Below, piece by piece: positions 3,897 through 64,000 of a stretch of DNA of 64,000 bases. Below the pieces are notes generated by a model. It worked only from the letters and a program-made list of their open reading frames with translations. It ran no database searches and was not told the origin of the DNA. The stretch is taken from the sequence record QB031383.1; one strand, given 5' to 3'. Position 1 is the stretch's first letter, and every line of letters begins with the position of its first letter. The position numbers and the translations under genes are program-made. Source of the stretch: a phage.

Positions 3897-4146
3897 TGAG
3901 CAAAAAGTAAATAAACGATGCCTTACCATTAAAGATTTGGATGTAGGAGATACTTTCGTCTATGAAAATGCATTTGACGAAAATGGTTTAGACCTTAGTG
4001 AAATCATTGTTTATTTAAAAGTAGATGATGGGGAAAATGATTATTCTGCTGTAGAACTAAACCATCATGCACAATTAGTATCAATCCAAAACACATCTAA
4101 GCTTTTGGAAGTAGAATTGACTGTAACTGGTATTACACTTAAATAA
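3877..4146 (+). CDS. small protein, paralog B of the duplicated pair
   Basis: GTG start after GGAGG; 89 aa; paralogous to 2577-2855. Confidence 0.5.
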   Translation: MLNFEIDEQKVNKRCLTIKDLDVGDTFVYENAFDENGLDLSEIIVYLKVDDGENDYSAVELNHHAQLVSIQNTSKLLEVELTVTGITLK

Positions 4147-4161
4147 TAGAGGAGACAAAAG

Positions 4162-4764
4162 ATGACTGATAAAATTTCCCTGAAAAAAGGCTCTAGCGAA
4201 AAAATTTCCCTGAAGAAAGTTGCTCCGGCTCTGAAAGAACTGCGCCTGGAATTCTCTTGGAAATCTGATTCTAAACTGGATCTGGATGTAAGTGCACTGG
4301 TTTGTCGTCACAATGCCGCTGGCAATCCTGAAATGCTGTCTGCACGTCATCTGGTTTGCTATGCTAACAAGTTTGATCCTGAACGTTCTACCTTCGCTGG
4401 TGACGATGTTCGTGATGGAACTGGCAGCATGGAGCAGATTGATATTACTCTGGCTAAAATCTCTCCTGATGCACAAGAGATTGCCTTTGTTCTGACCATT
4501 GATGATGATACAGGTCTGAAACGTTTTGGTCATGCTTCTGAAGGTATGCTTAAAATCTTCGACTCCGAGCGCAATGTGGAAATTCTGGATTTTGACTTCC
4601 TGGCTCCTGAAGTAGCTGGCAACACAATCTGCCACGTGGCTTCCTTGGTTCGTGAAGATGGGGAATGGAAGCTGAAAGCATATGGTGTAGGTAAAGCTGG
4701 TCTGGATATTTGTGATGTGGTGATGGCCTTCGGTGGTAAAAAAGAATGGTATGAATGTCCATAA
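4162..4764 (+). CDS. terD: TerD-domain stress response protein
   Basis: 200 aa; TerD-like features (N-terminal KISLKKG repeats, LDLDVSALV, GDD..DG acidic Ca-binding-type motifs); strong RBS GAGGAG. Confidence 0.65.
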   Translation: MTDKISLKKGSSEKISLKKVAPALKELRLEFSWKSDSKLDLDVSALVCRHNAAGNPEMLSARHLVCYANKFDPERSTFAGDDVRDGTGSMEQIDITLAKISPDAQEIAFVLTIDDDTGLKRFGHASEGMLKIFDSERNVEILDFDFLAPEVAGNTICHVASLVREDGEWKLKAYGVGKAGLDICDVVMAFGGKKEWYECP

Positions 4765-4782
4765 TAATTAACAAATGATTTT

Positions 4783-4806
4783 GAGGGGGAGAAATCCCCC
4801 TCTTGC
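4783..4806 (+). terminator. stem-loop GAGGGGGA-GAAA-TCCCCCTC after the TerD-like gene (weak U-tract)
   Basis: 8-bp GC-rich perfect stem read directly; T-tract downstream is short, so efficiency uncertain. Confidence 0.45.
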
Positions 4807-4831
4807 AATAAAGCCTCTATCGTGTTATACT
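4803..4831 (+). promoter_or_regulatory. sigma70-like promoter (TTGCAA-17-TATACT)
   Basis: -35 TTGCAA at 4803-4808, -10 TATACT at 4826-4831, upstream of the 4864 gene. Confidence 0.5.
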
Positions 4832-4863
4832 AGAAATTCGTTAACTTAAAAAGGAGGCAAAAT

Positions 4864-5385
4864 TTGCTGATAAAAAACTTTGTAACAGTTGCGTTACTAT
4901 CCTTAACTGCTTTTACATTTACACCTGTTGTGGCGAAAGCCGAAGCTGCAAACGTAAAAACCGCTAAAGTAGTTCACAAATGTACAAAGCAATATAATGA
5001 TAAAATTCTATTAGCTTGTGCAATTTACGCAGAAGGTCGAGGTCTGGGTAAAAAAGGAATGAATGCCGTTGGGAATGTGGTAATCAACAGACGAAATGAT
5101 ACCTACTTCCCTAACACAGTCAGAGGAGTCTTGTTCCAGAAAGGGCAATTCTCATATGCGAAAACTTTTAACGTAACAGAGAAAGATAAGTGGCAGGAAG
5201 CAAAAGCAATAGCGGAGCGTTTACTTTATTTAGAGAAACATTTTCCTGAATTGCGGTCTGTTTTAGATGTTACTAAAGGTGCCCTATACTTCAAGAAACG
5301 GAATATAAGGACAAACTGGGAACGTGATATGCGTCTTGTTTATCGAGATAAAGTGCATGGTTTCTATCTACCAAAGGGGAGTTAA
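4864..5385 (+). CDS. secreted cell wall hydrolase, SleB-like (Hydrolase_2 family); candidate endolysin
   Basis: TTG start after AAAGGAGG; N-terminal signal/SAR-like hydrophobic segment ending AKAEA; SleB-like motifs CAIYAEGRG, VVINRRND, VLFQKGQFSY. Confidence 0.6.
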   Translation: MLIKNFVTVALLSLTAFTFTPVVAKAEAANVKTAKVVHKCTKQYNDKILLACAIYAEGRGLGKKGMNAVGNVVINRRNDTYFPNTVRGVLFQKGQFSYAKTFNVTEKDKWQEAKAIAERLLYLEKHFPELRSVLDVTKGALYFKKRNIRTNWERDMRLVYRDKVHGFYLPKGS

Positions 5386-15642: not shown

Positions 15643-15861
15643 ATGCGTAAATTAGTGAGCTTTAATGTTTCAATTCTTGTTGATGAACAAAATGAAGATG
15701 TTATTAAAGGTCTTGCAAATAAGATTGCAGGTGGAATGACGGAAGCTGAAGTGTGGGAAGAATGTGCTCGACTTTATGAGGAAGGTGTTATTGAGGTCTT
15801 GGGGGATGAGATTAATATGGACGATGTTGTAAAAGTAACTGTGGAGCGTATCAATGACTAA
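15643..15861 (+). CDS. hypothetical protein
   Basis: 72 aa ORF; AAGGAGAAAACA RBS. Confidence 0.45.
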   Translation: MRKLVSFNVSILVDEQNEDVIKGLANKIAGGMTEAEVWEECARLYEEGVIEVLGDEINMDDVVKVTVERIND

Positions 15862-16447
15862 ATCAAAACAAATCAATATTGCCAAAGAAATTCTTACCGT
15901 ATTAAAGATCGCTGATCCTAATTCTGTCTTGGCTGGCGGTGCTGTTCGTGATTGGCGTATTCTTGATATTGCTGGACGTGATCTGGATTTCTATACGTCC
16001 CTTCCTGCACATCGGACTGAAGAACAAATACAAGGATTAATTGCATCTGCTTTAATGGGAACCAATATTCGTAAACTAGGAAACAAAGAGGCTTCTGACA
16101 ATTATGAAGGTGTTACTGGTCTTAAACACGTTTTTGAGTTTGAACGTGATGGTCAGCTTTGCAACCTTATGATTATGGAACCAAGCGTAATGACAACCTT
16201 TCTAAATGAGTTCGATCTGTCCATCTGCCAGGCTGCATTTGATGGGAAGGATTGTTATTATTCTAAAGATTTTGAAACAACCTTGGAAACAGGGATCTGC
16301 TTCTTGCACAAAGACGTTAGAGAAGATGCCAAACACGTTATTAAAATTGCTACACGTTTCCCATATCTTCGTTTTGTGAAAGAGGTTAAGGTTCCACGTC
16401 CACCTCAAGTAGATACCAGATTGGAAGAAGATGATATTCCTTGGTAA
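15854..16447 (+). CDS. small nucleotidyltransferase with CCA-adding-enzyme-like head motif and acidic C-terminal tail
   Basis: 197 aa; Pol-beta NTase signature LAGGAVRD...DLDF as in tRNA nucleotidyltransferases; C-terminus EEDDIPW resembles SSB tips. Confidence 0.5.
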   Translation: MTKSKQINIAKEILTVLKIADPNSVLAGGAVRDWRILDIAGRDLDFYTSLPAHRTEEQIQGLIASALMGTNIRKLGNKEASDNYEGVTGLKHVFEFERDGQLCNLMIMEPSVMTTFLNEFDLSICQAAFDGKDCYYSKDFETTLETGICFLHKDVREDAKHVIKIATRFPYLRFVKEVKVPRPPQVDTRLEEDDIPW

Positions 16448-56471: not shown

Positions 56472-56550
56472 TGGAGGCGGGAATCGGATTTGAACCGATG
56501 ATCTCCAGCATATGAAACTGGCGAGGACGACCAGACTCCTCTATCCCGCT
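56472..56550 (-). tRNA. tRNA-Met (anticodon CAT)
   Basis: Hand-folded cloverleaf: T-arm ATCGG-TTCAAAT-CCGAT, anticodon loop TTCATAT, CCA encoded; 1-72 position appears mismatched (A/C). Confidence 0.55.
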
Positions 56551-56552
56551 AT

Positions 56553-56627
56553 TATGTATCCCGTGCTGGATTCGAACCAGCATCACAATAAGCTGTGGAA
56601 CTCTTATCCTGTAAGTCTAACGGGAAA
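56553..56627 (-). ncRNA. tRNA-like element, anticodon arm not resolvable (possible pseudo-tRNA)
   Basis: Canonical T-arm GCTGG-TTCGAAT-CCAGC and 6-bp acceptor, packed between two tRNAs, but no standard D/anticodon arms. Confidence 0.3.
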
Positions 56628-56628
56628 C

Positions 56629-56702
56629 TGGTTGTTTCGACAAGAATCGAACTTGTGTCTCACGATTATCAGTCGTGGGTTCTACCATTGAACTACGAAA
56701 CA
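56629..56702 (-). tRNA. tRNA-Ile (anticodon GAT)
   Basis: Acceptor TGTTTCG/CGAAACA, D-arm GTTC-AATGGTA-GAAC, anticodon stem CACGA/TCGTG with loop CTGATAA, T-loop TTCGATT, CCA encoded. Confidence 0.7.
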
Positions 56703-56708
56703 TTTGAT

Positions 56709-56785
56709 TGGTCGGAATTGCAGGATTCGAACCTGCGACCCTACGCTCCCAAAGCGTATGCTCTACCAAACTGAGCTAAATTCCG
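56709..56785 (-). tRNA. tRNA-Pro (anticodon TGG)
   Basis: Acceptor CGGAATT/AATTCCG, D-arm GCTC-AGTTTGGTA-GAGC, anticodon loop TTTGGGA, T-arm GCAGG-TTCGAAT-CCTGC, CCA encoded. Confidence 0.75.
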
Positions 56786-56790
56786 TTATA

Positions 56791-56866
56791 TGGCTGGTCT
56801 GTCTGGATTTGAACCAAACCTACGACAGTCAAAGTGTCGTGTGCTACCGGACTACACTACAAACCA
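56791..56866 (-). tRNA. tRNA-Gln (anticodon TTG)
   Basis: Acceptor with U1-A72, anticodon stem CGACA/TGTCG with loop CTTTGAC, T-loop TTCAAAT, discriminator G, CCA encoded. Confidence 0.7.
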
Positions 56867-56964
56867 ATAAATCATTTAATGAAGGGCAACCAGAAGAGGT
56901 GTGAGAGAAGGAGAAAACCATGAGTAAAAGAGAAAGTTTTCTGGCAACCCTTTATTAAATAATT

Positions 56965-57038
56965 TGGAGCGTTCTACGAGGATCGAACTCGTGCCGCCGA
57001 CTTGGAAGGACGGAATGCTACCGCTACACCAAGAACGC
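56965..57038 (-). tRNA. tRNA-Gly (anticodon TCC)
   Basis: Acceptor GCGTTCT/AGAACGC, anticodon loop CTTCCAA, T-arm ACGAG-TTCGATC-CTCGT, discriminator U, CCA encoded. Confidence 0.6.
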
Positions 57039-57049
57039 CCTACATCTTT

Positions 57050-57079
57050 ACTATACTACATTTTACTATTGGTTGTCAA
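57050..57079 (-). promoter_or_regulatory. promoter-like element (aCTATTGACAa, -10-like TATAGT) directly upstream of tRNA-Gly
   Basis: Minus strand TTGACA-18-TATAGT; one of four copies of the same -35-containing motif. Confidence 0.5.
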
Positions 57080-57352
57080 TAGTTTTATTGAGCGGGACAG
57101 TGACGAGTATCCCATTGGGTGACTAGCCCTACGTTCGGTAAGCTAACTTAAAATAATACAAAACCAAAGTCAAATATTATTCTTCGTTGCTGTCGATGGG
57201 AGAGCCGCTTCTTCTTTTGCCCCATCCAACCCTACTCCGGTCAAGTTTCAGGTAACTCTTTTTGTGATCAACACAATACTAAGAACACTGTCTTTCGAGC
57301 AGACCTTGTGCACAGGATACGACGATCAATCACAGTGCTCTTAATGTTGTGT

Positions 57353-57427
57353 TGGTGCTCCCACTCTGAATCGAACAGAGATCCACGGATTACAAAACCG
57401 TTGTAATAGCCATTATACTATAGGAGC
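57353..57427 (-). tRNA. tRNA-Thr (anticodon TGT)
   Basis: Acceptor GCTCCTA/TGGGAGC (one G-U), anticodon loop TTTGTAA, T-arm CTCTG-TTCGATT-CAGAG, CCA encoded. Confidence 0.6.
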
Positions 57428-57433
57428 AAAGCT

Positions 57434-57511
57434 GGGACTCGGCAGGATTCGATACCTGCAATTCCAGAAGCCTCTTGGCGACTGGGGGGTTTACCTTAAC
57501 TCTACAAGTCC
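57434..57511 (-). ncRNA. tRNA-like element with 8-nt T-loop and no recognisable anticodon arm (possible pseudo-tRNA)
   Basis: 7-bp acceptor GGACTTG/CGAGTCC and T-arm GCAGG-TATCGAAT-CCTGC; internal region forms a long imperfect hairpin instead. Confidence 0.3.
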
Positions 57512-57518
57512 ATAATTC

Positions 57519-57604
57519 TGGCGATGAGTATAGGATTTGAACCTATATCGTTCTTTCGAACACGGATTAACAGTCCGCCGCTTAAACCATTCAGCCAACT
57601 CATC
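57519..57604 (-). tRNA. tRNA-Asn (anticodon GTT) with an unusually long variable arm
   Basis: Perfect acceptor GATGAGT/ACTCATC, Asn-type anticodon arm GCGGA-CTGTTAA-TCCGT, discriminator G, CCA encoded; 15-nt variable region GTTC-GAAA-GAAC. Confidence 0.55.
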
Positions 57605-57610
57605 TTAATT

Positions 57611-57698
57611 TGGTGGTGAGTGATGGAGTCGAACCACCCGAATCGCAATGATAACAGATTTACAGTCTGCCCCGCTACCCCTACGGAATTAACTCACC
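57611..57698 (-). tRNA. tRNA-Tyr (anticodon GTA), type II
   Basis: Acceptor GGTGAGT/ACTCACC, anticodon arm GCAGA-CTGTAAA-TCTGT, long variable arm, T-loop TTCGACT, CCA encoded. Confidence 0.65.
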
Positions 57699-57828
57699 TA
57701 AATACTAATATTTAAATTCTTTTTAAAATAGCCAGTGTTCACACCACTAACTATGAGTTATCGGTAAAGTGGTTACCGCCACTTGCCGAAGATTTACTCT
57801 GCTAAAGTAAGCTATATTAAAAAGAACT

Positions 57829-57914
57829 TGGCGGTAGATGTAGGACTCGAACCTACACGCCGTTTCCGACTACAGTTTAGCAAACTGTCGTGGCTACCAT
57901 TTCACCAATCTACC
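57829..57914 (-). tRNA. tRNA-Ser (anticodon GCT), type II
   Basis: Acceptor GGTAGAT/ATCTACC, anticodon stem ACAGT/ACTGT with loop TTGCTAA, long variable arm, T-arm GTAGG-TTCGAGT-CCTAC, CCA encoded. Confidence 0.7.
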
Positions 57915-57918
57915 AATC

Positions 57919-58009
57919 TGGCGGAAGGAGGGAGAGTCGAACTCCCAAGGCTCTTTCAAGCTCGGCGGTTTTCAAGACCGTTTTCGTCGCCACGTCGATT
58001 TGCCCTTCC
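57919..58009 (-). tRNA. tRNA-Ser (anticodon TGA), type II
   Basis: Acceptor GGAAGGG/TCCTTCC, anticodon loop CTTGAAA, long variable arm, T-arm GGGAG-TTCGACT-CTCCC, CCA encoded; D-arm atypical. Confidence 0.55.
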
Positions 58010-58018
58010 ATACTTATA

Positions 58019-58047
58019 ATCTAACATAAAATAATGTTAGTTGTCAA
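58019..58047 (-). promoter_or_regulatory. promoter-like element (aCTATTGACAa, -10-like TTAGAT) upstream of tRNA-Ser
   Basis: Minus strand TTGACA-17-TTAGAT; shares the TATG-TTAG block with the 58605 copy. Confidence 0.5.
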
Positions 58048-58243
58048 TAGTTTTTTAAAACATTTTACCATGAATGGTGACTCCACCAACCCCCGTTCTC
58101 AACGAACGGTGCTCTTCGAGCATTTATGTCTTCTAATATAACCGTGGCCTTTGTTTATAATGTCTGACATACTTGCCTCATTCTCTGCCACCATGATCAG
58201 TAGTGGGTTCAAATCACTTGAGCTAATTCATGTTAAAATGTTC

Positions 58244-58318
58244 TGGTGTCTTTACAAGGAATCGAACCTTGACTAAGAGTTTAGAAGACTCCTGTGCTAT
58301 CCATTACACCATAAAGAC
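58244..58318 (-). tRNA. tRNA-Arg (anticodon TCT)
   Basis: Acceptor GTCTTTA/TAAAGAC, D-arm GTGT-AATGGATA-GCAC, anticodon loop CTTCTAA, T-arm CAAGG-TTCGATT-CCTTG, CCA encoded. Confidence 0.7.
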
Positions 58319-58320
58319 GT

Positions 58321-58395
58321 TGGTGGCCCTGGCTGGTTTCGATCCAGCTACCTATCGGTTATGAGCCGACAGCTCTCCCATTGAGCTACAGGGCC
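58321..58395 (-). tRNA. tRNA with CAT anticodon (Met or lysidine-type Ile2)
   Basis: Acceptor GGCCCTG/CAGGGCC, D-arm GCTC-AATGGGA-GAGC, anticodon loop CTCATAA, non-canonical T-loop ATCGAAA, CCA encoded. Confidence 0.6.
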
Positions 58396-58604
58396 ATAAA
58401 TGTGGTAACAGAGACGCTGACGATTGTAGAGAACCGCTACATTCTCTAAGACCAAGCCCAACTTTCAGCGTAAAAGTTCTTGAGCCGAGACTATTCCTTT
58501 TCCTCTTTGGTAGCTAACCTCTGAAGAAGTAGTCTCTAACACTACCGCAGTGCAAGCCCCTCTTAACAAAAGTCAACGACCCTGTTACCACACTTGATGA
58601 ACGT

Positions 58605-58633
58605 ATCCTAACATATGAAGGATACGTTTGTCA
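58605..58633 (-). promoter_or_regulatory. promoter-like element (aCTATTGACAa, -10-like TTAGGA) at the upstream end of the tRNA array
   Basis: Minus strand TTGACA-17-TTAGGA; would transcribe the structured spacer and the tRNAs. Confidence 0.45.
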
Positions 58634-58641
58634 ATAGTTAT

Positions 58642-58890
58642 TTAAGCATATTCTGCTACTTCTTCACTATCTTTCTTTTCCAGAAGAGCAACAACCAAAG
58701 CTTCTGCGTTAAAAGTATTAATTTCAAGATCCATCTCTCGCATCAGAGCCAAGAAATCAATAACTTTAACATCTTTAGTGATTACAATAGAAGTTGTACC
58801 ATTGTTTTCAGATGTGTATTTTTCTGGATGGAAAAGAAAAACTGCATTGCCGTTACCATCTTCAAACACGTGTTTTTCTAATAGAGACAT
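58642..58890 (-). CDS. hypothetical protein
   Basis: Start set at the internal ATG preceded by AGGAGGAAC (82 aa) rather than the longer track ORF. Confidence 0.4.
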   Translation of the reverse strand: MSLLEKHVFEDGNGNAVFLFHPEKYTSENNGTTSIVITKDVKVIDFLALMREMDLEINTFNAEALVVALLEKKDSEEVAEYA

Positions 58891-58898
58891 TGTTCCTC

Positions 58899-59150
58899 CT
58901 AATCTGTTAGTTGTTCGTCCTCTACCAAGTTTGACACGAGAACGTCTGTTATACATTGATGCTGATAAACCCTTTCGGGACTATCATCAAAAGCCAAACC
59001 TGTGCAAATAGAACAGAGGTCTGATTCCTTGATGACTCCATTTTTATCACGTCTGGAGTGGTTTGTCAAATGCCTATTACAAGCACGGCACCTAAAATAA
59101 AAGCTATTTTGCATATATCCTTCGAACCCCAAATGGGGAGTGATCGGCAT
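58899..59150 (-). CDS. hypothetical Zn-finger protein
   Basis: 83 aa; CRACN...CSIC cysteine pairs. Confidence 0.4.
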   Translation of the reverse strand: MPITPHLGFEGYMQNSFYFRCRACNRHLTNHSRRDKNGVIKESDLCSICTGLAFDDSPERVYQHQCITDVLVSNLVEDEQLTD

Positions 59151-59187
59151 CTCCTCACTTCTAGTTTAGCACGAAGGATATCTTAAG

Positions 59188-59373
59188 TCAACTAGGAATA
59201 ATTTTATCCTTTTTGGTTTCATAACCAGTCCAATCTAAATCCTCCCAGCCTTCATCATCGTCTAACACATTGTCATCATCATAAGATGCAATGTTATAAA
59301 TAGAACGTGGATTACAAGACATACAATCTTTAATAGGCACATGATGCCATTTGCACGGATTCTCGCTAATCAT
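59188..59373 (-). CDS. hypothetical small acidic protein
   Basis: 61 aa; GGAGGTG RBS; first gene of the leftward unit leaving the divergent region. Confidence 0.45.
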   Translation of the reverse strand: MISENPCKWHHVPIKDCMSCNPRSIYNIASYDDDNVLDDDEGWEDLDWTGYETKKDKIIPS

Positions 59374-59405
59374 TGCACACCTCCATTCTTGTTAAGATGT
59401 TCCGT

Positions 59406-59434
59406 ACTGTACTTCATACTGATCTATAGATCAA
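59406..59434 (-). promoter_or_regulatory. leftward promoter candidate (TTGATC-17-TACAGT) in the divergent control region
   Basis: Read on the reverse complement; spacer contains the palindrome GATCTATAGATC. Confidence 0.45.
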
Positions 59435-59781
59435 GTATTATTTATAATAATTTATTATTTTATTTTTAATTGATAGAAGTTGATCTGTACGTACCAGTTC
59501 TGATACACTGTACCTGTTTGTTAGATCTAATAATTATTTATTATTAATATTTAATAATTATTAATCTAGTACGGAGTACAGTACTTGAGTACAGAGTACT
59601 ACATCAACAACCTAAAACCTTAACTCGCTGCGCTCGTTAATAGATTTCTAGGGTAGCATACTTCGAACACAAAAGTCAAGAGTTTTATTAAAAATTATTT
59701 TCTGTGTGCAAAAACCTTGCTTAAACAGGTAGCAATAGTATAGCCTATAACATAAGCTTCATAAGAGGCTCGTAGAGCAAG

Positions 59782-59810
59782 TTTACTTACTAGGTAAGGT
59801 GATTTATCAT
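59782..59810 (+). promoter_or_regulatory. rightward promoter candidate (TTTACT-17-TATCAT)
   Basis: Upstream of the first plus-strand small gene (RBS AGGAGG, ATG 59855). Confidence 0.35.
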
Positions 59811-59854
59811 CTTATATATAAAAAGTGAGTCAGAGACGCGTTTAGGAGGCTAGA

Positions 59855-60178
59855 ATGAGATTTACAAGACAAGAGGTAGTTGTGCTGGACGAAGCAATGA
59901 CAATGATCGTCTTTTACTATGAGGATATCTTCTGTGCAGCATATCATTTAAATGACATTCAGATTGAATGGCAGCAGATAGCATTCCTGTTGGACAAGAG
60001 TAATCATTTGGATGGCTTTGAGTATTTGGAGTGGGATGGTGCAAAGGAAGTTAAAATTGTAGGGTTAAATCACGATCAGATTGTTGACATGCAATGTAAG
60101 TTGTGTCATTATCAGTTCTCAAACAAAGTCAAACTCGAAAGGCAATTGGAGGTGGTTAAAGATGATAGCACTAATTAG
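59855..60178 (+). CDS. hypothetical protein
   Basis: 107 aa ORF with TAGGAGG RBS. Confidence 0.45.
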   Translation: MRFTRQEVVVLDEAMTMIVFYYEDIFCAAYHLNDIQIEWQQIAFLLDKSNHLDGFEYLEWDGAKEVKIVGLNHDQIVDMQCKLCHYQFSNKVKLERQLEVVKDDSTN

Positions 60179-60274
60179 TGAGAATCCAGTCCTGACAACA
60201 ATTGTTCTGATTTTTGCCATGTGTGTGGTTCACGATATTCTGGTAAGTTATTTTGACAACAAAGGAGGTAAGAA

Positions 60275-60469
60275 ATGAAAGACGTTATTCAAATGGTATT
60301 CCGTGTAACTCTAGATGGTATACACGTTGTTAAAGGCACACAGAACTACACAGAAGCGAAAGAATACTTCTTAGAGTGGATTGATACACTGAAGACACAA
60401 GATGTGTCCTACAGCCGTGTTACGCTTACTGGCGACCATACCCCAATCATGGAGTACGTAAAGAAATGA
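60275..60469 (+). CDS. hypothetical protein
   Basis: 64 aa; AAAGGAGG RBS. Confidence 0.4.
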   Translation: MKDVIQMVFRVTLDGIHVVKGTQNYTEAKEYFLEWIDTLKTQDVSYSRVTLTGDHTPIMEYVKK

Positions 60470-60705
60470 GCAACTATCCAATTACAGGCGTAACCTATTC
60501 TTGTGTATCAAAAGGTGGTTTATATACAGTAGTGGAATTTCCAAAACCTGCCGGAATATCTAAAGTGTTTGATCCTGTGGTTATCTATGAAGATCTTAGA
60601 ACAGGTCAACGTTACTGGAGATTTGTGAATGACTTTTTAGATCGTATGGAGGTAGTAAGTGGCGAAAACACCGAAGAAGTTATCAAAGCCAAAGAACGTT
60701 ACTAA
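60466..60705 (+). CDS. hypothetical protein
   Basis: 79 aa; ATG overlaps upstream stop (ATGA). Confidence 0.4.
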   Translation: MSNYPITGVTYSCVSKGGLYTVVEFPKPAGISKVFDPVVIYEDLRTGQRYWRFVNDFLDRMEVVSGENTEEVIKAKERY

Positions 60706-61012
60706 GAAACCGAAAAACGAGGTTCTCAAAGTAGCTAAATCAGTTCCTAAGAAAGATAAATTTGATACGGAGGCATTCGTCTTTGACACACCAATCGAGA
60801 AGATTGAAGAAGCGTTGCAACGTCTTGAGGAGCAGGAGGCAGATCCAATGGCTGAACCACTCACGGCAGACCAAATTTATTGGTGGGGAATATGGACTTT
60901 GCAACTGCCAGAAGCAAAAAGAAGAGGAATGACTTCAGTTCCTACTTGTGCAAAAGAAGCGGCTGTGTTAGGTTTGTATGAGAAATCTAAAAAGAGGAGC
61001 AAAAAGAAATGA
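60659..61012 (+). CDS. hypothetical lysine-rich protein
   Basis: GTG start after GGAGG; KKxK-rich N- and C-termini (possible nucleic-acid binding). Confidence 0.4.
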   Translation: MAKTPKKLSKPKNVTKKPKNEVLKVAKSVPKKDKFDTEAFVFDTPIEKIEEALQRLEEQEADPMAEPLTADQIYWWGIWTLQLPEAKRRGMTSVPTCAKEAAVLGLYEKSKKRSKKK

Positions 61013-61290
61013 TCAAGACTTTTCTGAAGTGTGTAAAAGCAACAGATAATGAGTGGTACTCTGGATTATTCACTGCTGGCAAGAAATACGAGATCCTCAA
61101 CGGGACAGGCAAGAAGTTTTCTCTCGTTGTAAACGATGAAGGCACGAAGCAAATGGTATTTGCTGAAAGTTCTGTTTATGGTATTTTTGAAGTAGTGCAA
61201 GAAGGCTCTCCAATGATTCTGGAGTATCATGGCACTAATAAACCATATACTGCTATGGATGTTATCAACAACAAGAGGAATGCAAAATGA
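61009..61290 (+). CDS. hypothetical protein
   Basis: 93 aa; overlapping start/stop. Confidence 0.45.
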   Translation: MIKTFLKCVKATDNEWYSGLFTAGKKYEILNGTGKKFSLVVNDEGTKQMVFAESSVYGIFEVVQEGSPMILEYHGTNKPYTAMDVINNKRNAK

Positions 61291-61469
61291 TTTTACTATA
61301 TTCCGGTAAGGCAAAATACATGCAAGGTGTTAAACGTGTAGAGGTTACTAAGACAGTAACAATCGGGAAATCTTTTATCGTTTATTATTTCCTTGTTAAT
61401 GGGAAGGAGTATGCTGTAGCAAAGACCTTGGTTGATAAGGGTAAAACGTGGAAAGTGGAGGCACTATGA
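61287..61469 (+). CDS. hypothetical protein
   Basis: 60 aa; coupled to neighbours. Confidence 0.35.
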   Translation: MILLYSGKAKYMQGVKRVEVTKTVTIGKSFIVYYFLVNGKEYAVAKTLVDKGKTWKVEAL

Positions 61470-61672
61470 TCCCTATAGCTGGGTGGGTGGTATTGGCAAC
61501 ACTTAATGGGAATGTTACTGTGGAGACTAAAACCATCTTCAAAGCACCAGAAGATTGCTATAACTCCTTGGTAACTTGGCCTCGTGATGAGGATGATAAG
61601 TCAGAGTATCAGTGTTTTTACATTGAGGGTAATCCTGTAGAATTTGAGGTTAAAGTGAAGGAGGAAAAATGA
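61448..61672 (+). CDS. hypothetical protein
   Basis: 74 aa; GGAGG RBS. Confidence 0.4.
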   Translation: MESGGTMIPIAGWVVLATLNGNVTVETKTIFKAPEDCYNSLVTWPRDEDDKSEYQCFYIEGNPVEFEVKVKEEK

Positions 61673-62139
61673 GAATTAAAGTAACTAAAGCTTACGATGA
61701 TAACCCGAAGTTTATCTCTTTGAATAAGAGTTATGGTGTAGAAAACGGCGATGAGTTCGAGGTTATCGATCTTTTTGAGGATCACGGGTATATTGTCAAA
61801 GCCCCAATCACAGAGCAGGCTATTATCATCTTACGCACAGAGGCTGTTGAGGTAGGTTCTGATGAGCCTCAATATGACAGCCCATACATGACAGAGTGGA
61901 TCGTAGCTGTGGATGTTGGAGGTATGGTTTCTGTACTGGAAGCTCCTAATCTCCATCCTGGTTTTACAGAGAACGGTAAGACAGCTTTGGATTATGGGTT
62001 GCCAGAAGATGTTGAGAATACACCGCCAGGTATGTACCGTTGGATTTGCTCTTTCCATGAAGAGAAGGATTGGGAATCAGGACTTGTTGATGATTGGCAT
62101 TTTGAAGTGGAAAGTTCTTTTTTGATCATGCCAGCTTAA
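61669..62139 (+). CDS. hypothetical protein
   Basis: 156 aa; AAGGAGGAAAA RBS. Confidence 0.45.
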   Translation: MRIKVTKAYDDNPKFISLNKSYGVENGDEFEVIDLFEDHGYIVKAPITEQAIIILRTEAVEVGSDEPQYDSPYMTEWIVAVDVGGMVSVLEAPNLHPGFTENGKTALDYGLPEDVENTPPGMYRWICSFHEEKDWESGLVDDWHFEVESSFLIMPA

Positions 62140-62149
62140 AGGAGGTTAT

Positions 62150-62494
62150 ATGAAAGTTTGGATAGATGATATGCGGAACCCAGCCGACTATGGACAGGAA
62201 GATGCAATTTGGTTTAAAACGTCACAAGAAGCTATGGCCTTTCTCAATGATCCTGCTAAACTGTATCGAAGAGTAACCGAGTGGTCTTTTGACAATGATT
62301 TAGGTATGGAGTCAGACCAAGATGGGTATGATGTTTTCCTGCACCTGGAAGAACTTCTGGCGTTTGGTAAACCTTGCTTTGGTTCACCTACCATTTTCGT
62401 GCATACTTCTAATCCCGCCGCTGGGGATAAATTCATGCTTGCAAAAGAATCCATGCAGCGTTATGGTATTAAAATGATTCGTGTGCACTACTAA
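62150..62494 (+). CDS. hypothetical protein
   Basis: 114 aa; AAGGAGG RBS. Confidence 0.45.
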   Translation: MKVWIDDMRNPADYGQEDAIWFKTSQEAMAFLNDPAKLYRRVTEWSFDNDLGMESDQDGYDVFLHLEELLAFGKPCFGSPTIFVHTSNPAAGDKFMLAKESMQRYGIKMIRVHY

Positions 62495-62653
62495 GGAGAG
62501 AACATGCATCATTCGGTTTGGTCGGAACAAGAAGAGGACGAAGGTTACTTTATCTACAGAGAAGAAGAGGATTGGCCCGACACAAGCAATGATCTTTTAC
62601 TTCCAGATACTAGTTTTTTCGAGGATAATTTAAGAGAGGAGGATTAGGAAACA

Positions 62654-63010
62654 ATGAGTGGTATTGAAAACAACATTTGTTACCAACCTCTTACCTGGAT
62701 GGGTGAGGGTCATTATGCGCAACGTGTTATCGTCTGTGCTGCAAATAAGTATATTTTGAATAATGGTGAAGAATTAATTATTCCTTGTGTTCGACATGCA
62801 AATCCTGTACTATATGCACAGTTAAACGTGTTGAAAGAAGCAGGTGTAATCAACAAAACTTTGTGCACACCAGATAATCAAGGCTTTATCGATCAGTATT
62901 ACAATTGGTGGAGTCGTGCGGATGCTTACATCATCGCGGAAAATGCTGACCAGATCGACCATGAGCGTAATGGTCACGACCATGAATTATTTAGCGAGGG
63001 ATTATACTAA
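62654..63010 (+). CDS. hypothetical protein
   Basis: 118 aa; GAGAGGAGGA RBS; several Cys/His. Confidence 0.45.
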   Translation: MSGIENNICYQPLTWMGEGHYAQRVIVCAANKYILNNGEELIIPCVRHANPVLYAQLNVLKEAGVINKTLCTPDNQGFIDQYYNWWSRADAYIIAENADQIDHERNGHDHELFSEGLY

Positions 63011-63561
63011 TGTTTATTACAAGCGATTTGCATTTTATGCATAAACGTATTCGAGAGTTTGCTCCTGAATATCGTCCGTGGGAAGATATGGACCACATGA
63101 CAGAAGCCTTGATCGAAGCATGGAACAAATGTGCTACTACTCCTGGTGTTAAGATGTGGCATTTGGGCGACTTCTGTTTCGGAACTGAAGAAGATACCCG
63201 TAAAATTGCTTCCCGTCTCCAAGGAGATATCACCTACTGTGTTGGGAACCATGACTACAGCAAACACCGAGAAGTGCTTGCAGAGTATGGAGAAGTGGTG
63301 TATTATGACGAAGTGAAATATCAGAAGCTGTTCTTCGTCTTAAGCCATTACCCTATGGCCTCCTGGAATAAACAAGGTCGTGGATCAATCATGCTACACG
63401 GGCATTCCCACGGATCTTTCCCTGATGAAGCTTATGGTAAAATGTTAGATGTGGGTTGGGATGCACACGGAAAAATCTTGCATTTTGATGAGATAATTTC
63501 TATGATGAGTAAACGAGATATCGTGACTGTAGACCATCACAAAATAATCAAAGGAGAGTAA
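63010..63561 (+). CDS. metallophosphoesterase (calcineurin-like phosphatase family)
   Basis: 183 aa; ordered metal-binding motifs DLHF.H, GDFCFG, GNHD, HGHSHG. Confidence 0.65.
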   Translation: MFITSDLHFMHKRIREFAPEYRPWEDMDHMTEALIEAWNKCATTPGVKMWHLGDFCFGTEEDTRKIASRLQGDITYCVGNHDYSKHREVLAEYGEVVYYDEVKYQKLFFVLSHYPMASWNKQGRGSIMLHGHSHGSFPDEAYGKMLDVGWDAHGKILHFDEIISMMSKRDIVTVDHHKIIKGE

Positions 63562-63562
63562 T

Positions 63563-64000
63563 GTGGCTAAATTTAATTGCGACGATTTGGTTGAAAAAGG
63601 TTTAGTTCATAAGAAAACATATAAAGAAGGAGAGTATTCTGGTCTATCTGTTCTTAAGTATAAGAACAAAGTTTTCTGGGATAACTTATGGAGCATTGAT
63701 TCTCGTCTTCTAGAATGTCGAGGAATCGTTGTTGATGCGGATGACAATGTTGTTATTTGGCCTTTCACTAAGATTTTTAATCGTTTTGAGAATGGCACAG
63801 ACCTACCAGAGGATGAATTTGTAGATGTGGTTCGTAAAGTAAATGGTTTTATGGCCTCTGTGGGTGTATATAAAGGTCAACTTATTGTATCGACAACAGG
63901 AAGCCTTGAATCAGATTTTGCAAGTATTGCAAAGAATCGTATTGTTTCAGAGTGTGATGACATAGAACATTTCATCAAATGGACAGAGAGTGCAAAAGCA
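63563..64000 (+). CDS. RNA ligase, T4 Rnl1-like (N-terminal part; continues beyond window)
   Basis: GTG start after AAGGAGAG; LECRGI block and motif I-like lysine KVNG (T4 Rnl1 has KEDG), STTGS block; open to the window end. Confidence 0.55.
   Translation, partial: MAKFNCDDLVEKGLVHKKTYKEGEYSGLSVLKYKNKVFWDNLWSIDSRLLECRGIVVDADDNVVIWPFTKIFNRFENGTDLPEDEFVDVVRKVNGFMASVGVYKGQLIVSTTGSLESDFASIAKNRIVSECDDIEHFIKWTESAKA

Follow-up and report, generated by a model that had tools for sequence, protein, structure and literature searches.

The eleven small genes at 59855–62647 of the analysed DNA, a window of 64,000 nucleotides, probably form the promoter-proximal end of a long non-structural unit, built as a three-part mosaic that opens a predicted RNA-repair module. 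The window belongs to a Phapecoctavirus genome (a phAPEC8-like E. coli myovirus) that is 99.3% identical to phage ECO340P1, and 65 records cover at least 80% of the region. The mosaic consists of conserved genes (ORF1, ORF3, ORF4 and ORF5), replaceable accessory genes (ORF2 and ORF6–9) and the pair ORF10 and ORF11, with which the RNA-repair module begins. As ORF1–9 carry no functional assignment, this explanation is anatomical and not mechanistic for nine of the eleven genes. The block is otherwise ordinary and already catalogued: public records list each ORF as a hypothetical protein, and none appears to be novel.

The block is filled by co-oriented, translationally coupled plus-strand ORFs of 38–156 aa. 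Six of their junctions are 4-nt ATGA overlaps, two are longer overlaps (17 and 47 nt), and the remaining two are gaps of 10 and 9 nt. Coordinates, junctions, ribosome-binding sites and a predominance of third-position substitutions bear out the original prediction of a tightly coupled block of eleven small rightward genes, except that its size range of 47–156 aa starts too high, the smallest ORF being ORF2 with 38 aa. Strong ribosome-binding sites had been expected for most genes; Shine-Dalgarno matches of at least 5 nt, scored at −18 to −5 from the start, indeed precede 9 of 11 block starts compared with 4% of all ATG and GTG codons in the window, and matches of at least 4 nt precede all eleven compared with 15%. 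Relative to phiWec190 and phi92-like orthologues, substitutions in ORF1 and ORF3–10 fall mostly at third codon positions, and the codon-position counts indicate purifying selection on these genes. ORF2 is the exception: in each of the other ten ORFs, comparison with one or more relatives shows third-position bias. A 481-bp divergent intergenic region, predicted as the control region from which the block starts, lies directly to its left and separates it from the first leftward gene (59188–59373). The GC skew changes sign at this divergent region, and no terminator-like sites occur within 58400–64000.

A candidate sigma-70 promoter (TTTACT-17 nt-TATCAT; plus strand, 59782–59810; 9 of 12 matches in a promoter scan) sits 45 nt upstream of ORF1. 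Its −10 element TATCAT is kept in phiWec190, tuntematon and FKP3, the last of which has a perfect TTGACA-17-TATCAT at the corresponding position; promoter-like sites as a class are not enriched across the region (15 found vs. 15.9 expected from shuffled sequence). Downstream, the rightward unit headed by the block continues with genes for RNA ligase, DNA ligase, exonucleases, thymidylate synthase and ribonucleotide reductase. The opposite, leftward unit holds tRNA, lysis and morphogenesis genes; the ten tRNA genes of this phage lie close by, on the other side of the divergent region. One polycistronic mRNA would probably be read from the host-type promoter at ~59782–59810 and be translated by coupling. 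Because a literature search found no transcriptome of any Stephanstirmvirinae phage, we infer both the single transcript and early timing, the latter from the conserved sigma-70-like promoter and the operon content. A more typical early-looking region is present elsewhere in the relatives' genomes (L028, 5.9–17.3 kb of tuntematon), where many small ORFs each lie behind their own spacer of ~80–90 nt.

Relatives used in the analysis include ESCO37 (98.6% DNA identity over the region) and phiWec190 (85%). The distribution of the genes among relatives separates the parts of the mosaic. ORF1, 3, 4, 5, 10 and 11 are conserved throughout the subfamily Stephanstirmvirinae, and the variable cassette comprises ORF2 and ORF6–9. 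Judged from its sequence distribution, the conservation of ORF1, 3, 4 and 5 is the pattern of core genes and not that of fast-turnover effectors. ORF1 (59855–60178, 107 aa; PHROG 14390) is acidic (pI 4.7) and follows an AGGAGG ribosome-binding site. Its orthologues in phi92-like phages and FKP3 are 41–48% identical. Its counts of substitutions at the first, second and third codon positions are 6/1/23, and since C27 and C81 are its only invariant cysteines there is no conserved zinc site. ORF3 (60275–60469, 64 aa; PHROG 15683; ribosome-binding site AAGGAGGT) has codon-position counts of 7/4/19 and is 48% identical to its orthologues in phi92-like phages and FKP3, and ORF4 (60466–60705, 79 aa; PHROG 12584) shows 74–75% identity across the subfamily. 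Sequence searches of the PDB gave no match for ORF1 or ORF3 and no significant match for ORF4. A resemblance of ORF4 to DUF1653 (PF07866; E = 0.099) was rejected, as its 13.5 bits lie below the gathering cut-off of 23.5 and thus place it outside the family by Pfam's rule.

ORF2 (60162–60278; 38 aa from ATG, 65 aa from an upstream TTG) is the weakest gene call, with counts of 9/2/5 and no third-position excess. It has a GGAGGT ribosome-binding site and is probably a single-helix membrane peptide, as suggested by a Kyte-Doolittle maximum of 2.28 over 17 residues. In phiWec190 the frame is open, of equal length and hydrophobic, though unannotated. Its distribution is restricted to Phapecoctavirus, and tblastn against phi92-like phages and FKP3 returned no match at E ≤ 1e-3.

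The Lys-rich ORF5 (60659–61012, 117 aa) starts with GTG behind a GGAGGT ribosome-binding site and overlaps ORF4 by 47 nt. A variable Lys/Pro-rich N-terminal tail, whose first residues MAKTPKK are conserved among homologues, is followed by a conserved core (KFDTEAFVF...YWWG.W...PTCAKE) and a basic C-terminal tail. The core is present in 338 phage records with 62–67% identity between lineages, a distribution that marks ORF5 as core to the rV5/PVP-SE1/phi92 supergroup as a whole. In PVP-SE1-like phages, the homologue lies immediately upstream of genes for phosphoesterase, Rnl1, cREC and kinase, which are followed by Sir2 and DNA ligase; gene order thus indicates that ORF5 travels with RNA-repair genes, adjoining them even in distant relatives. 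The arrangement of basic tails around a conserved core makes the protein a likely nucleic-acid binder. Its public label as a transposase was rejected: no Pfam match (E ≤ 1), and hence no transposase or integrase domain, was found in ORF5, precomputed Pfam domains occur in none of 61 homologues, and a PDB sequence search found nothing.

Within the variable cassette, ORF6 (61009–61290, 93 aa) and the basic ORF7 (61287–61469, 60 aa; pI 9.8) occur in Phapecoctavirus and phi92-like phages and are replaced in tuntematon and FKP3. The best PHROG for ORF6 is 10169 (E = 2.8e-42), and tblastn places it in Stephanstirmvirinae only, apart from a C-terminal motif of 27 residues that also occurs in podophages of ~75 kb. 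ORF7 has the strongest codon-position bias in the block (1/2/21). In one source it is called 'Modifier of suppressor tRNAs', a name that is unsupported because no T4-type match appears. ORF8 (61466–61672, 68 aa; PHROG 15821) is acidic with a hydrophobic N-terminus, is confined to Phapecoctavirus and has no match in a PDB sequence search. ORF9 (61669–62139, 156 aa) combines an N-terminal SH3-like beta-barrel (residues 1–62) with a C-terminal DUF8046 domain (about 58–153). All 67 close homologues carry PF26219, and 90 representative clusters align to residues of about 58–153. By sequence the domain is an ordinary DUF8046 member; it differs from DUF8046 alone in its fusion to the barrel, for which Phapecoctavirus supplied the only examples. 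DUF8046 homologues also sit among small uncharacterised genes in the pre-replicative regions of T4-like phages.

ORF10 (62150–62494, 114 aa) matches the Pfam family cREC_REC (PF20274; E = 6.5e-17, profile positions 1–83 of 88) with a score of 62.4 bits (cut-off, 27), and its tuntematon orthologue reaches 53.6 bits. Together with DUF8046 in the ORF9 homologues, this overturns the earlier view that the Lys-rich protein aside, none of the products has a recognisable motif. cREC, the cyclic-phosphate processing receiver domain, has a predicted role only (PMC7824862, PMC9503650) and was found in 350 phage records; the UniRef name for ORF10 is already cREC. Residues D6, D7, D48, D50, T86, S87, K94 and K99 are invariant among five orthologues (48–95% identity), and the receiver-type site with its acidic pair, Asp, T/S and Lys is intact. 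By analogy with receiver domains, the acidic pair would follow strand 1 and the Asp strand 3. ORF10 is therewith a predicted 2',3'-cyclic phosphodiesterase. The public label 'RNA ligase and tail attachment protein' on this gene is misleading, its product being cREC. Association with RNA-repair genes is evident here, where the Rnl1 gene starts 1.07 kb downstream and is followed by a kinase gene, and in PVP-SE1-like phages, where Rnl1 adjoins cREC. ORF11 (62504–62647, 47 aa; AAGGAG ribosome-binding site) is very acidic, with 17 D+E and 2 K+R residues. In the subfamily it always lies between cREC and the PF26092 gene, in two sequence variants that share W..E.(E/D)G.(F/Y)(I/V)Y...WPD. Identity amounts to 82% in phi92-like phages and 30% in tuntematon and FKP3, and tblastn found no match in phiWec190. 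Third-position bias is seen against the phi92-like phage Paula only (6/5/16) and not against tuntematon (12/17/24) or FKP3 (13/16/24). ORF11 probably belongs to the predicted RNA-repair, counter-nuclease module.

Three plus-strand genes outside the block continue this module within the window. ORF12 (62654–63010, 118 aa) is by sequence an ordinary member of PF26092, has enzyme-like invariant polar residues and gave a confident model, for which a fold search found no structural relative in the PDB. As no characterised anti-restriction protein or nuclease resembles it, its public label 'anti-restriction nuclease' was rejected. ORF13 (63010–63561, 183 aa) is a calcineurin-like metallophosphoesterase (PF00149, E = 3e-5, 24.9 bits vs. 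a cut-off of 21.5; PHROG 547 phosphoesterase, E = 6.5e-56). The 5' part of an Rnl1-type RNA ligase gene (63563–64000), cut by the window end, encodes 145 residues, of which 3 differ from ESCO37, and includes the KxNG motif-I lysine (RKVNG); the full 310-aa ESCO37 orthologue matches PF09511 (RNA_lig_T4_1) with E = 3.8e-15. In ESCO37 the next gene, which here would lie beyond the window end, encodes a P-loop kinase of 134 aa (AAA_33, E = 2.7e-10; PHROG polynucleotide kinase, E = 8e-8; best PHROG, a generic 'ATPase').

From the domain identities and this order (cREC, ORF11, PF26092 protein, metallophosphoesterase, Rnl1, P-loop kinase) we infer the enzyme activities and substrates of a predicted pathway of RNA end healing and sealing. 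A tRNA cut by a host anticodon nuclease or another metal-independent RNase would carry a 2',3'-cyclic phosphate and a 5'-OH. cREC would open the cyclic phosphate, the metallophosphoesterase would then take off the remaining phosphate, and after phosphorylation of the 5' end by the kinase Rnl1 could reseal the RNA. In T4, Pnkp and Rnl1 repair tRNA and thereby counter the PrrC anticodon nuclease, Pnkp being a single protein with both kinase and DxDxT (HAD-type) phosphatase. The present module resembles that system in having an Rnl1-family ligase, a putative 5'-kinase and predicted 3'-end healing in a tRNA-carrying myovirus, but differs in its stand-alone 134-aa kinase without a fused DxDxT phosphatase and in the predicted split of healing between cREC and the calcineurin-like metallophosphoesterase. 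It is thus predicted to work like the T4 system without a T4-type Pnkp.

A closer counterpart is the rV5/Mydo-type neighbourhood of sirtuin, T4-like tRNA ligase, cREC, nucleotide kinase, MazG and calcineurin-like phosphoesterase (Iyer, Burroughs, Anantharaman, Aravind 2022, PMC9503650), whose RNA-repair scheme is itself a computational prediction. As in that neighbourhood, the genes for cREC, Rnl1, P-loop kinase and calcineurin-like phosphoesterase share a strand and a span of 2.5 kb, and Sir2 and a MazG-clan gene are found further along the rightward unit in the congener tuntematon. The layout departs from it in that ORF11, the PF26092 protein and the phosphoesterase separate cREC from Rnl1, Sir2 is not adjacent but ~30 kb away, and some congeners have lost Rnl1 and the kinase.

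Clusters of small early genes next to a promoter are familiar from lytic coliphages, as in the class I genes of T7 and the early ORF clusters of T4. The present block shares with them short, overlapping, RBS-rich and partly variable ORFs behind a host-type candidate promoter; it differs in that six of its eleven genes (ORF1, 3, 4, 5, 10, 11) are subfamily-conserved and that none matches a characterised takeover protein. The original prediction that such a block holds host-takeover or anti-defence proteins can therefore be kept in part. ORF10, and probably ORF11, lie in a predicted RNA-repair module, which is anti-defence in a broad sense, and ORF2 and ORF6–9 vary like accessory genes, but the conservation of ORF1, 3, 4 and 5 does not fit, nor does any ORF resemble a known anti-defence or takeover protein. 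Pfam, PHROGs, NCBIfam and PDB sequence searches, with fold searches for ORF9 and ORF12 only, gave no such resemblance, which in general libraries of this kind is absence of evidence. The proposed structural comparison with anti-defence proteins, as run, yielded no known inhibitor for ORF9, and solved structures of known function gave no match to any block ORF. That most or all eleven proteins are early effectors, each of which blocks a protein or an immune system of the host, appears unlikely. Small size, a place at the head of a non-structural unit behind a host-type candidate promoter, the extreme charge of ORF5 and of ORF11 (DNA-mimic-like) and the DUF8046 homologues of T4-like pre-replicative regions would suit such proteins, as would the gain, loss or replacement of ORF2 and ORF6–9 among close relatives and the HNH endonuclease genes inserted at this locus in tuntematon, FKP3 and ESCO5-type phages. 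Against this stand the missing similarity to characterised inhibitors and the core-gene conservation, above all that of ORF5, which is unlike that of fast-evolving effectors. It is highly improbable that the block includes late or virion proteins, or small ORFs that are not genes at all. ORF6 does match PHROG 14592 'virion structural protein' weakly (E = 7.5e-6, 52 residues), yet its best PHROG has no assigned function, and the block lies on the strand opposite to the morphogenesis unit, in a unit shared with DNA metabolism genes. The lack of synonymous excess and of annotation in phiWec190 for ORF2 is likewise offset by its intact hydrophobic frame at 85% DNA identity, and the remaining ten ORFs show third-position bias behind ribosome-binding sites that are present in all eleven.

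RNA repair itself has to be weighed against the loss of its sealing enzymes. At 4 of 17 related loci (phiWec190, tuntematon, L013 and L022), cREC and the phosphoesterase are kept while Rnl1 and the kinase are absent from the locus, and neither was found anywhere in 149.8 of 150.5 kb of tuntematon, where cREC, the PF26092 protein and the phosphoesterase all appear to be under purifying selection. The healing enzymes are therefore not strictly dependent on a phage ligase, which leaves room for a role outside RNA repair. One such role would be a self-sufficient cassette of cREC, ORF11, PF26092 protein and metallophosphoesterase that destroys cyclic-phosphate small molecules, namely ADP-ribose-derived or cyclic-nucleotide immune signals or ADPr>P by-products, instead of healing RNA. 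The papers that defined cREC propose processing of cADPr or 1''-2'' cADPr as an alternative and note fusions to Nudix (PMC7824862, PMC9503650); in phi92-like phages the corresponding divergent region is flanked by the NAD-salvage genes Nampt and PRPP synthetase, and the rightward unit includes Sir2. We nonetheless regard this role as improbable, since in most lineages cREC, Rnl1 and the kinase form one contiguous group, with the cREC and Rnl1 genes even overlapping by 20 nt in Salmonella phage SEW_6S, and ligase loss could be mere decay of a module whose remaining parts retain residual use. More speculative, and quite improbable, is a stand-alone counter-defence cassette of the same four proteins, degrading cyclic-phosphate immune signals or ADP-ribose derivatives and not healing RNA, in which PF26092 would represent an enzyme fold absent from solved structures and ORF5 would serve as a nucleic-acid- or nucleotide-binding partner.

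With the promoter-proximal mosaic opening an RNA-repair module as the preferred reading, the block matters little as found: dozens of sequenced phAPEC8-like phages carry it nearly unchanged, public records already contain its genes, and its one assignable gene, cREC, agrees with a published computational prediction. The phAPEC8-like group has entered therapy cocktails and defence-system screens, and three public labels in it, 'transposase-like' for ORF5, 'anti-restriction nuclease' for ORF12 and 'RNA ligase and tail attachment protein' for the cREC gene, can now be corrected. Three by-products offer starting points for experiments in this group: ORF5, which is strongly conserved as a partner of the RNA-repair locus in about 340 phage genomes, the PF26092 protein with its confident model, which combines invariant polar residues with an apparent lack of structural relatives in the PDB, and natural phages that retain cREC and phosphoesterase without any RNA ligase.

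The block occupies 59855–62647 on the plus strand and consists of 11 ORFs with next to no non-coding sequence between them. Adjacent ORFs meet in six ATGA overlaps and two longer ones (17 nt and 47 nt), and 9–10 nt separate them at the other two junctions. Shine-Dalgarno matches are 5 nt or longer at nine of the 11 starts, compared with 4% of all ATG/GTG codons in the window (4 nt or longer: 11 of 11 vs. 15%). The original prediction of 11 tightly packed small ORFs with strong ribosome-binding sites is thus borne out, except for the minimum size, which is 38 aa (ORF2, 60162–60278) and not 47 aa. In comparisons with phiWec190 (85% identical) and the phi92-like phage Paula, substitutions in ORF1 and ORF3–10 fall predominantly in third codon positions (1/2/21 by codon position in ORF7), which points to genes under purifying selection. 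ORF11 (62504–62647) displays this bias relative to Paula only (6/5/16); tblastn did not find it in phiWec190, and the comparisons with tuntematon and FKP3 show no clear codon-position bias. ORF2 lacks the third-position signature and is the weakest gene call of the block. It is unannotated in phiWec190, yet the frame there is open, of the same length and strongly hydrophobic, and ORF2 probably encodes a small membrane peptide.

A gap of 481 bp separates the block from the first leftward gene, and the GC skew switches sign at the block's start, in agreement with its predicted position beside a divergent control region. The leftward unit on the opposite strand starts with three small ORFs and ten tRNA genes (56472–58395) and continues with spanin, terminase, head and tail genes. 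To the right, the plus strand encodes a PF26092 protein, a metallophosphoesterase, an Rnl1-type RNA ligase, a P-loop kinase and DNA ligase, followed by exonucleases, thymidylate synthase and ribonucleotide reductase. Given these rightward non-structural genes, the block makes up the opening 2.8 kb of the non-structural unit; no terminator-like sites were found within 58400–64000. A candidate sigma-70-like promoter (TTTACT-17-TATCAT, 59782–59810) lies 45 nt upstream of ORF1. Its −10 element is kept in relatives despite diverged flanks, and Klebsiella phage FKP3 carries a perfect TTGACA-17-TATCAT at the equivalent position. From this promoter we infer that the block could be transcribed early by unmodified host polymerase. 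We found no published transcriptome for Stephanstirmvirinae or the phAPEC8-like group, and the T4-type late motif TATAAATA is uninformative (6 occurrences vs. 4.6 expected).

The divergent region (59374–59854) contains two AT-rich blocks of ~39 nt, each starting with GATCTA (59421–59459 and 59524–59562), near-perfect AT palindromes (59528–59565) and a run of GTAC-containing repeats (~59568–59603). In tuntematon this region carries a repeat_region annotation, and the anhysbys record also has one beneath the matched stretch of 4.2 kb; the repeats may represent an origin or an array with regulatory function. Despite divergence on either side, tuntematon, phi92-like phages and FKP3 have all kept an element of ~45 nt (59623–59662 in the window, CTCGCTGCGCT...TAGGGTAGCATACTT); in phiWec190 it is not conserved. 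It folds no better than shuffled sequences (z = −0.56) and has no Rfam match; a tRNA was the single find in an Rfam scan of 58300–63000. In phi92-like phages, genes for nicotinamide phosphoribosyltransferase and PRPP synthetase (NAD salvage) replace the tRNA cluster to the left of the divergent region (1–1938 in loci L004 and L007, 1–1814 in L008). Phage AV125 has a tRNA-Tyr annotated between tRNA-Asn and tRNA-Ser (locus L002, 714–798); at the homologous site of the window (57614–57698, minus strand) ARAGORN called no tRNA.

The 4.2 kb around the block are 99.3% identical to Escherichia phage ECO340P1, and 65 phage records, nearly all Phapecoctavirus, cover at least 80% of this region. The window therefore derives from a well-sampled genus of phAPEC8-like myoviruses (~150 kb, subfamily Stephanstirmvirinae). 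Exact sequences of all 11 ORFs are already public under the name 'hypothetical protein', and each falls in a PHROG family of unknown function. PADLOC and NCBIfam scans of ten of the ORFs yielded nothing beyond noise, and PDB searches gave no significant match, either with single sequences (ORF3, 4, 6, 8, 10 and 12) or with profiles (ORF1, 5, 9 and 12).

Conservation was compared across phiWec190, tuntematon, two phi92-like phages, FKP3 and IMG/VR loci. ORF1, 3, 4, 5, 10, 11, 12 and 13 occur throughout Stephanstirmvirinae. ORF6 and ORF7 are found in Phapecoctavirus and phi92-like phages and are replaced by other genes and an HNH endonuclease in tuntematon and FKP3, while ORF2, ORF8 and ORF9 are limited to part of Phapecoctavirus. 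This distribution indicates that the framework of the block is conserved, whereas the genes between ORF5 and the gene for the cyclic-phosphate processing receiver domain (cREC, ORF10) form an exchangeable cassette. In L006 (3103–3774), L008 (3681–4352) and the ESCO5, REC and EF1-1 records, the interval from ORF5 to cREC has gained HNH homing-endonuclease genes, at the site where the ORF6–9 cassette is exchanged. In vB_EcoM_EP57 (L009, 130.7 kb; 3916–5132), fragments of ORF1–5 are fused directly to the DNA ligase gene, and most of the block appears to be lost together with the repair module. This loss is either an assembly artefact or a large natural deletion; an assembly or deletion artefact is likely, and we do not take the record as showing that the block is dispensable.

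Among the block's proteins without known function, the Lys-rich ORF5 (60659–61012), which had originally been singled out, is the best conserved. Its core (KFDTEAFVF...YWWG.W...RRG...PTCAKE) and basic C-terminal tail are well conserved, and its N-terminal Lys/Pro/Ser/Thr tail varies in length between homologues. The core occurs in 338 phage records, close to the 350 for cREC, spanning Stephanstirmvirinae, rV5-like Vequintavirinae, PVP-SE1-like phages, and Erwinia and Aeromonas phages. The PVP-SE1-like homologue is 62% identical (hhalign E=5e-44) and is followed directly by phosphoesterase, Rnl1, cREC, kinase, Sir2 and DNA ligase; ORF1, 3, 4, 6–9, 11 and 12 are all absent from that locus. Judging from its basic tails and its constant place next to the repair enzymes, ORF5 may bind nucleic acids in connection with them. 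A public 'transposase-like' label is an inherited mislabel, since none of the homologues has a Pfam domain and ORF5 has no PDB match. The Stephanstirmvirinae proteins carry an N-terminal extension whose coding sequence runs, in a different frame, across the final 47 nt of ORF4 (60659–60705). This extension is missing from the PVP-SE1-like homologues, whose overlap with the gene upstream is just 4 nt; the Lys-rich tail therefore looks like a lineage-specific, overprinted addition.

The C-terminal ~95 residues of ORF9 (61669–62139) form a DUF8046 domain, which is mostly found as a stand-alone protein of 100–130 aa. The domain occurs in 277 phage records. These include T4-like phages, where it lies amid pre-replicative genes (KP15_26 is located between helicase and primase genes). 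Among DUF8046 proteins with extra domains, the Pfam scan returned only DUF551 and a weak zinc ribbon, and the gene context of two homologues consisted of further unknown small genes. ORF4 (60466–60705) has a sub-threshold resemblance to DUF1653. A zinc finger in ORF1 (C27/H31, C81/C84/H86) was ruled out, as just C27 and C81 are invariant, and so was ORF7 as a 'modifier of suppressor tRNAs', as its homologues occur in Stephanstirmvirinae alone. Searches with ORF3, ORF6, ORF7 and ORF8 gave no informative match.

At the right end, the supposed lack of recognizable motifs did not hold: ORF10 (62150–62494) matches Pfam PF20274 (cREC) at 62.4 bits (cut-off 27), and its cluster already carries that name in UniRef. 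Residues D6, D7, D48, D50, T86, S87, K94 and K99 are invariant in five orthologues (48–95% identity), consistent with the acidic pair, aspartate, T/S and lysine expected of a receiver-type active site. In several GenBank records the gene goes under 'putative RNA ligase and tail attachment protein', a label apparently transferred from Rnl1 nearby. Predicted to open RNA 2′,3′-cyclic phosphates or 1″-2″ cyclic ADP-ribose phosphate, cREC is experimentally uncharacterized, as its describers stress, and in rV5-type phages it neighbors a sirtuin, T4-like tRNA ligase, nucleotide kinase, MazG and sometimes a calcineurin-like phosphoesterase (PMC7824862, PMC9503650). The present locus shares with that neighborhood cREC, the metallophosphoesterase (ORF13, PF00149, 63010–63561), Rnl1 (PF09511 at E=3.8e-15 on the full-length ESCO37 orthologue; the first 145 residues, including the KxNG motif, lie in the window from 63563) and the P-loop kinase (AAA_33 at E=2.7e-10; PHROG polynucleotide kinase at E=8e-8). 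In tuntematon a MazG-clan gene follows DNA ligase, and Sir2 is encoded ~30 kb further along the same unit. The best-supported reading is that the block's right end opens a predicted tRNA/RNA end-healing and sealing module. Elsewhere in the window, the plus-strand gene at 15854–16447 corresponds to an orthologue that ESCO37 and tuntematon label 'tRNA nucleotidyl transferase / poly(A) polymerase', but its own product matches no Pfam family at E≤0.001.

However, some relatives cut against a simple RNA-repair reading. An IMG/VR scan for cREC yielded only 12 loci. In 4 of 17 related loci (phiWec190, tuntematon, L013 and L022), Rnl1 and the kinase are absent from this site while cREC and the phosphoesterase are kept. 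The relatives that retain cREC, PF26092 and the metallophosphoesterase after losing the ligase and the kinase are represented by L006, L028, L029 and L030 (tuntematon) and by L005, L013 and L022. Screening of 149.8 of the 150.5 kb of tuntematon revealed no Rnl1 or kinase homologue (E<1), and its cREC, PF26092 and phosphoesterase genes are all intact, with cREC divergence still third-position-biased. This retention suggests that these enzymes either are useful without a phage ligase or have a substrate that is not broken RNA. The latter option is compatible with published work on cREC (PMC7824862, PMC9503650), and in phi92-like phages the same divergent region is flanked by NAD-salvage genes.

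ORF11 (47 aa, 17 acidic vs. 2 basic residues) always lies between cREC and the PF26092 gene within Stephanstirmvirinae and occurs in two sequence variants with the common motif W..E.(E/D)G.(F/Y)(I/V)Y...WPD. The PF26092 member ORF12 (62654–63010), just beyond the block, has invariant V27, A29, A30, R47, H48, Q76, G77, F78, R88, L112, S114, E115 and Y118 in an alignment of 52 sequences. Its 'anti-restriction nuclease' label in many records is without support, and a 118-aa gene beside the phosphoesterase in PVP-SE1-like phages proved unrelated to ORF12 (hhalign probability 0.04%).

Overall, the block is an ordinary, already catalogued feature that was correctly described, best explained as the probably polycistronic and early head of a non-structural operon, with lineage-core and accessory small proteins in its left and middle parts. 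The suggested anti-defense function gains partial support for ORF10–11 through the predicted repair module, may apply to the variable ORF2 and ORF6–9, and has little likelihood for ORF5 in view of its strong conservation. As a source of host-takeover proteins, a run of ~35 small leftward ORFs in tuntematon (L028, 5891–17348), with a spacer of ~80–90 nt before each, is the stronger candidate and resembles a classical multi-promoter early region no less than the block does. All features of the block are near known kinds of system, and the testable leads it offers are ORF5, PF26092 and cREC without a ligase.
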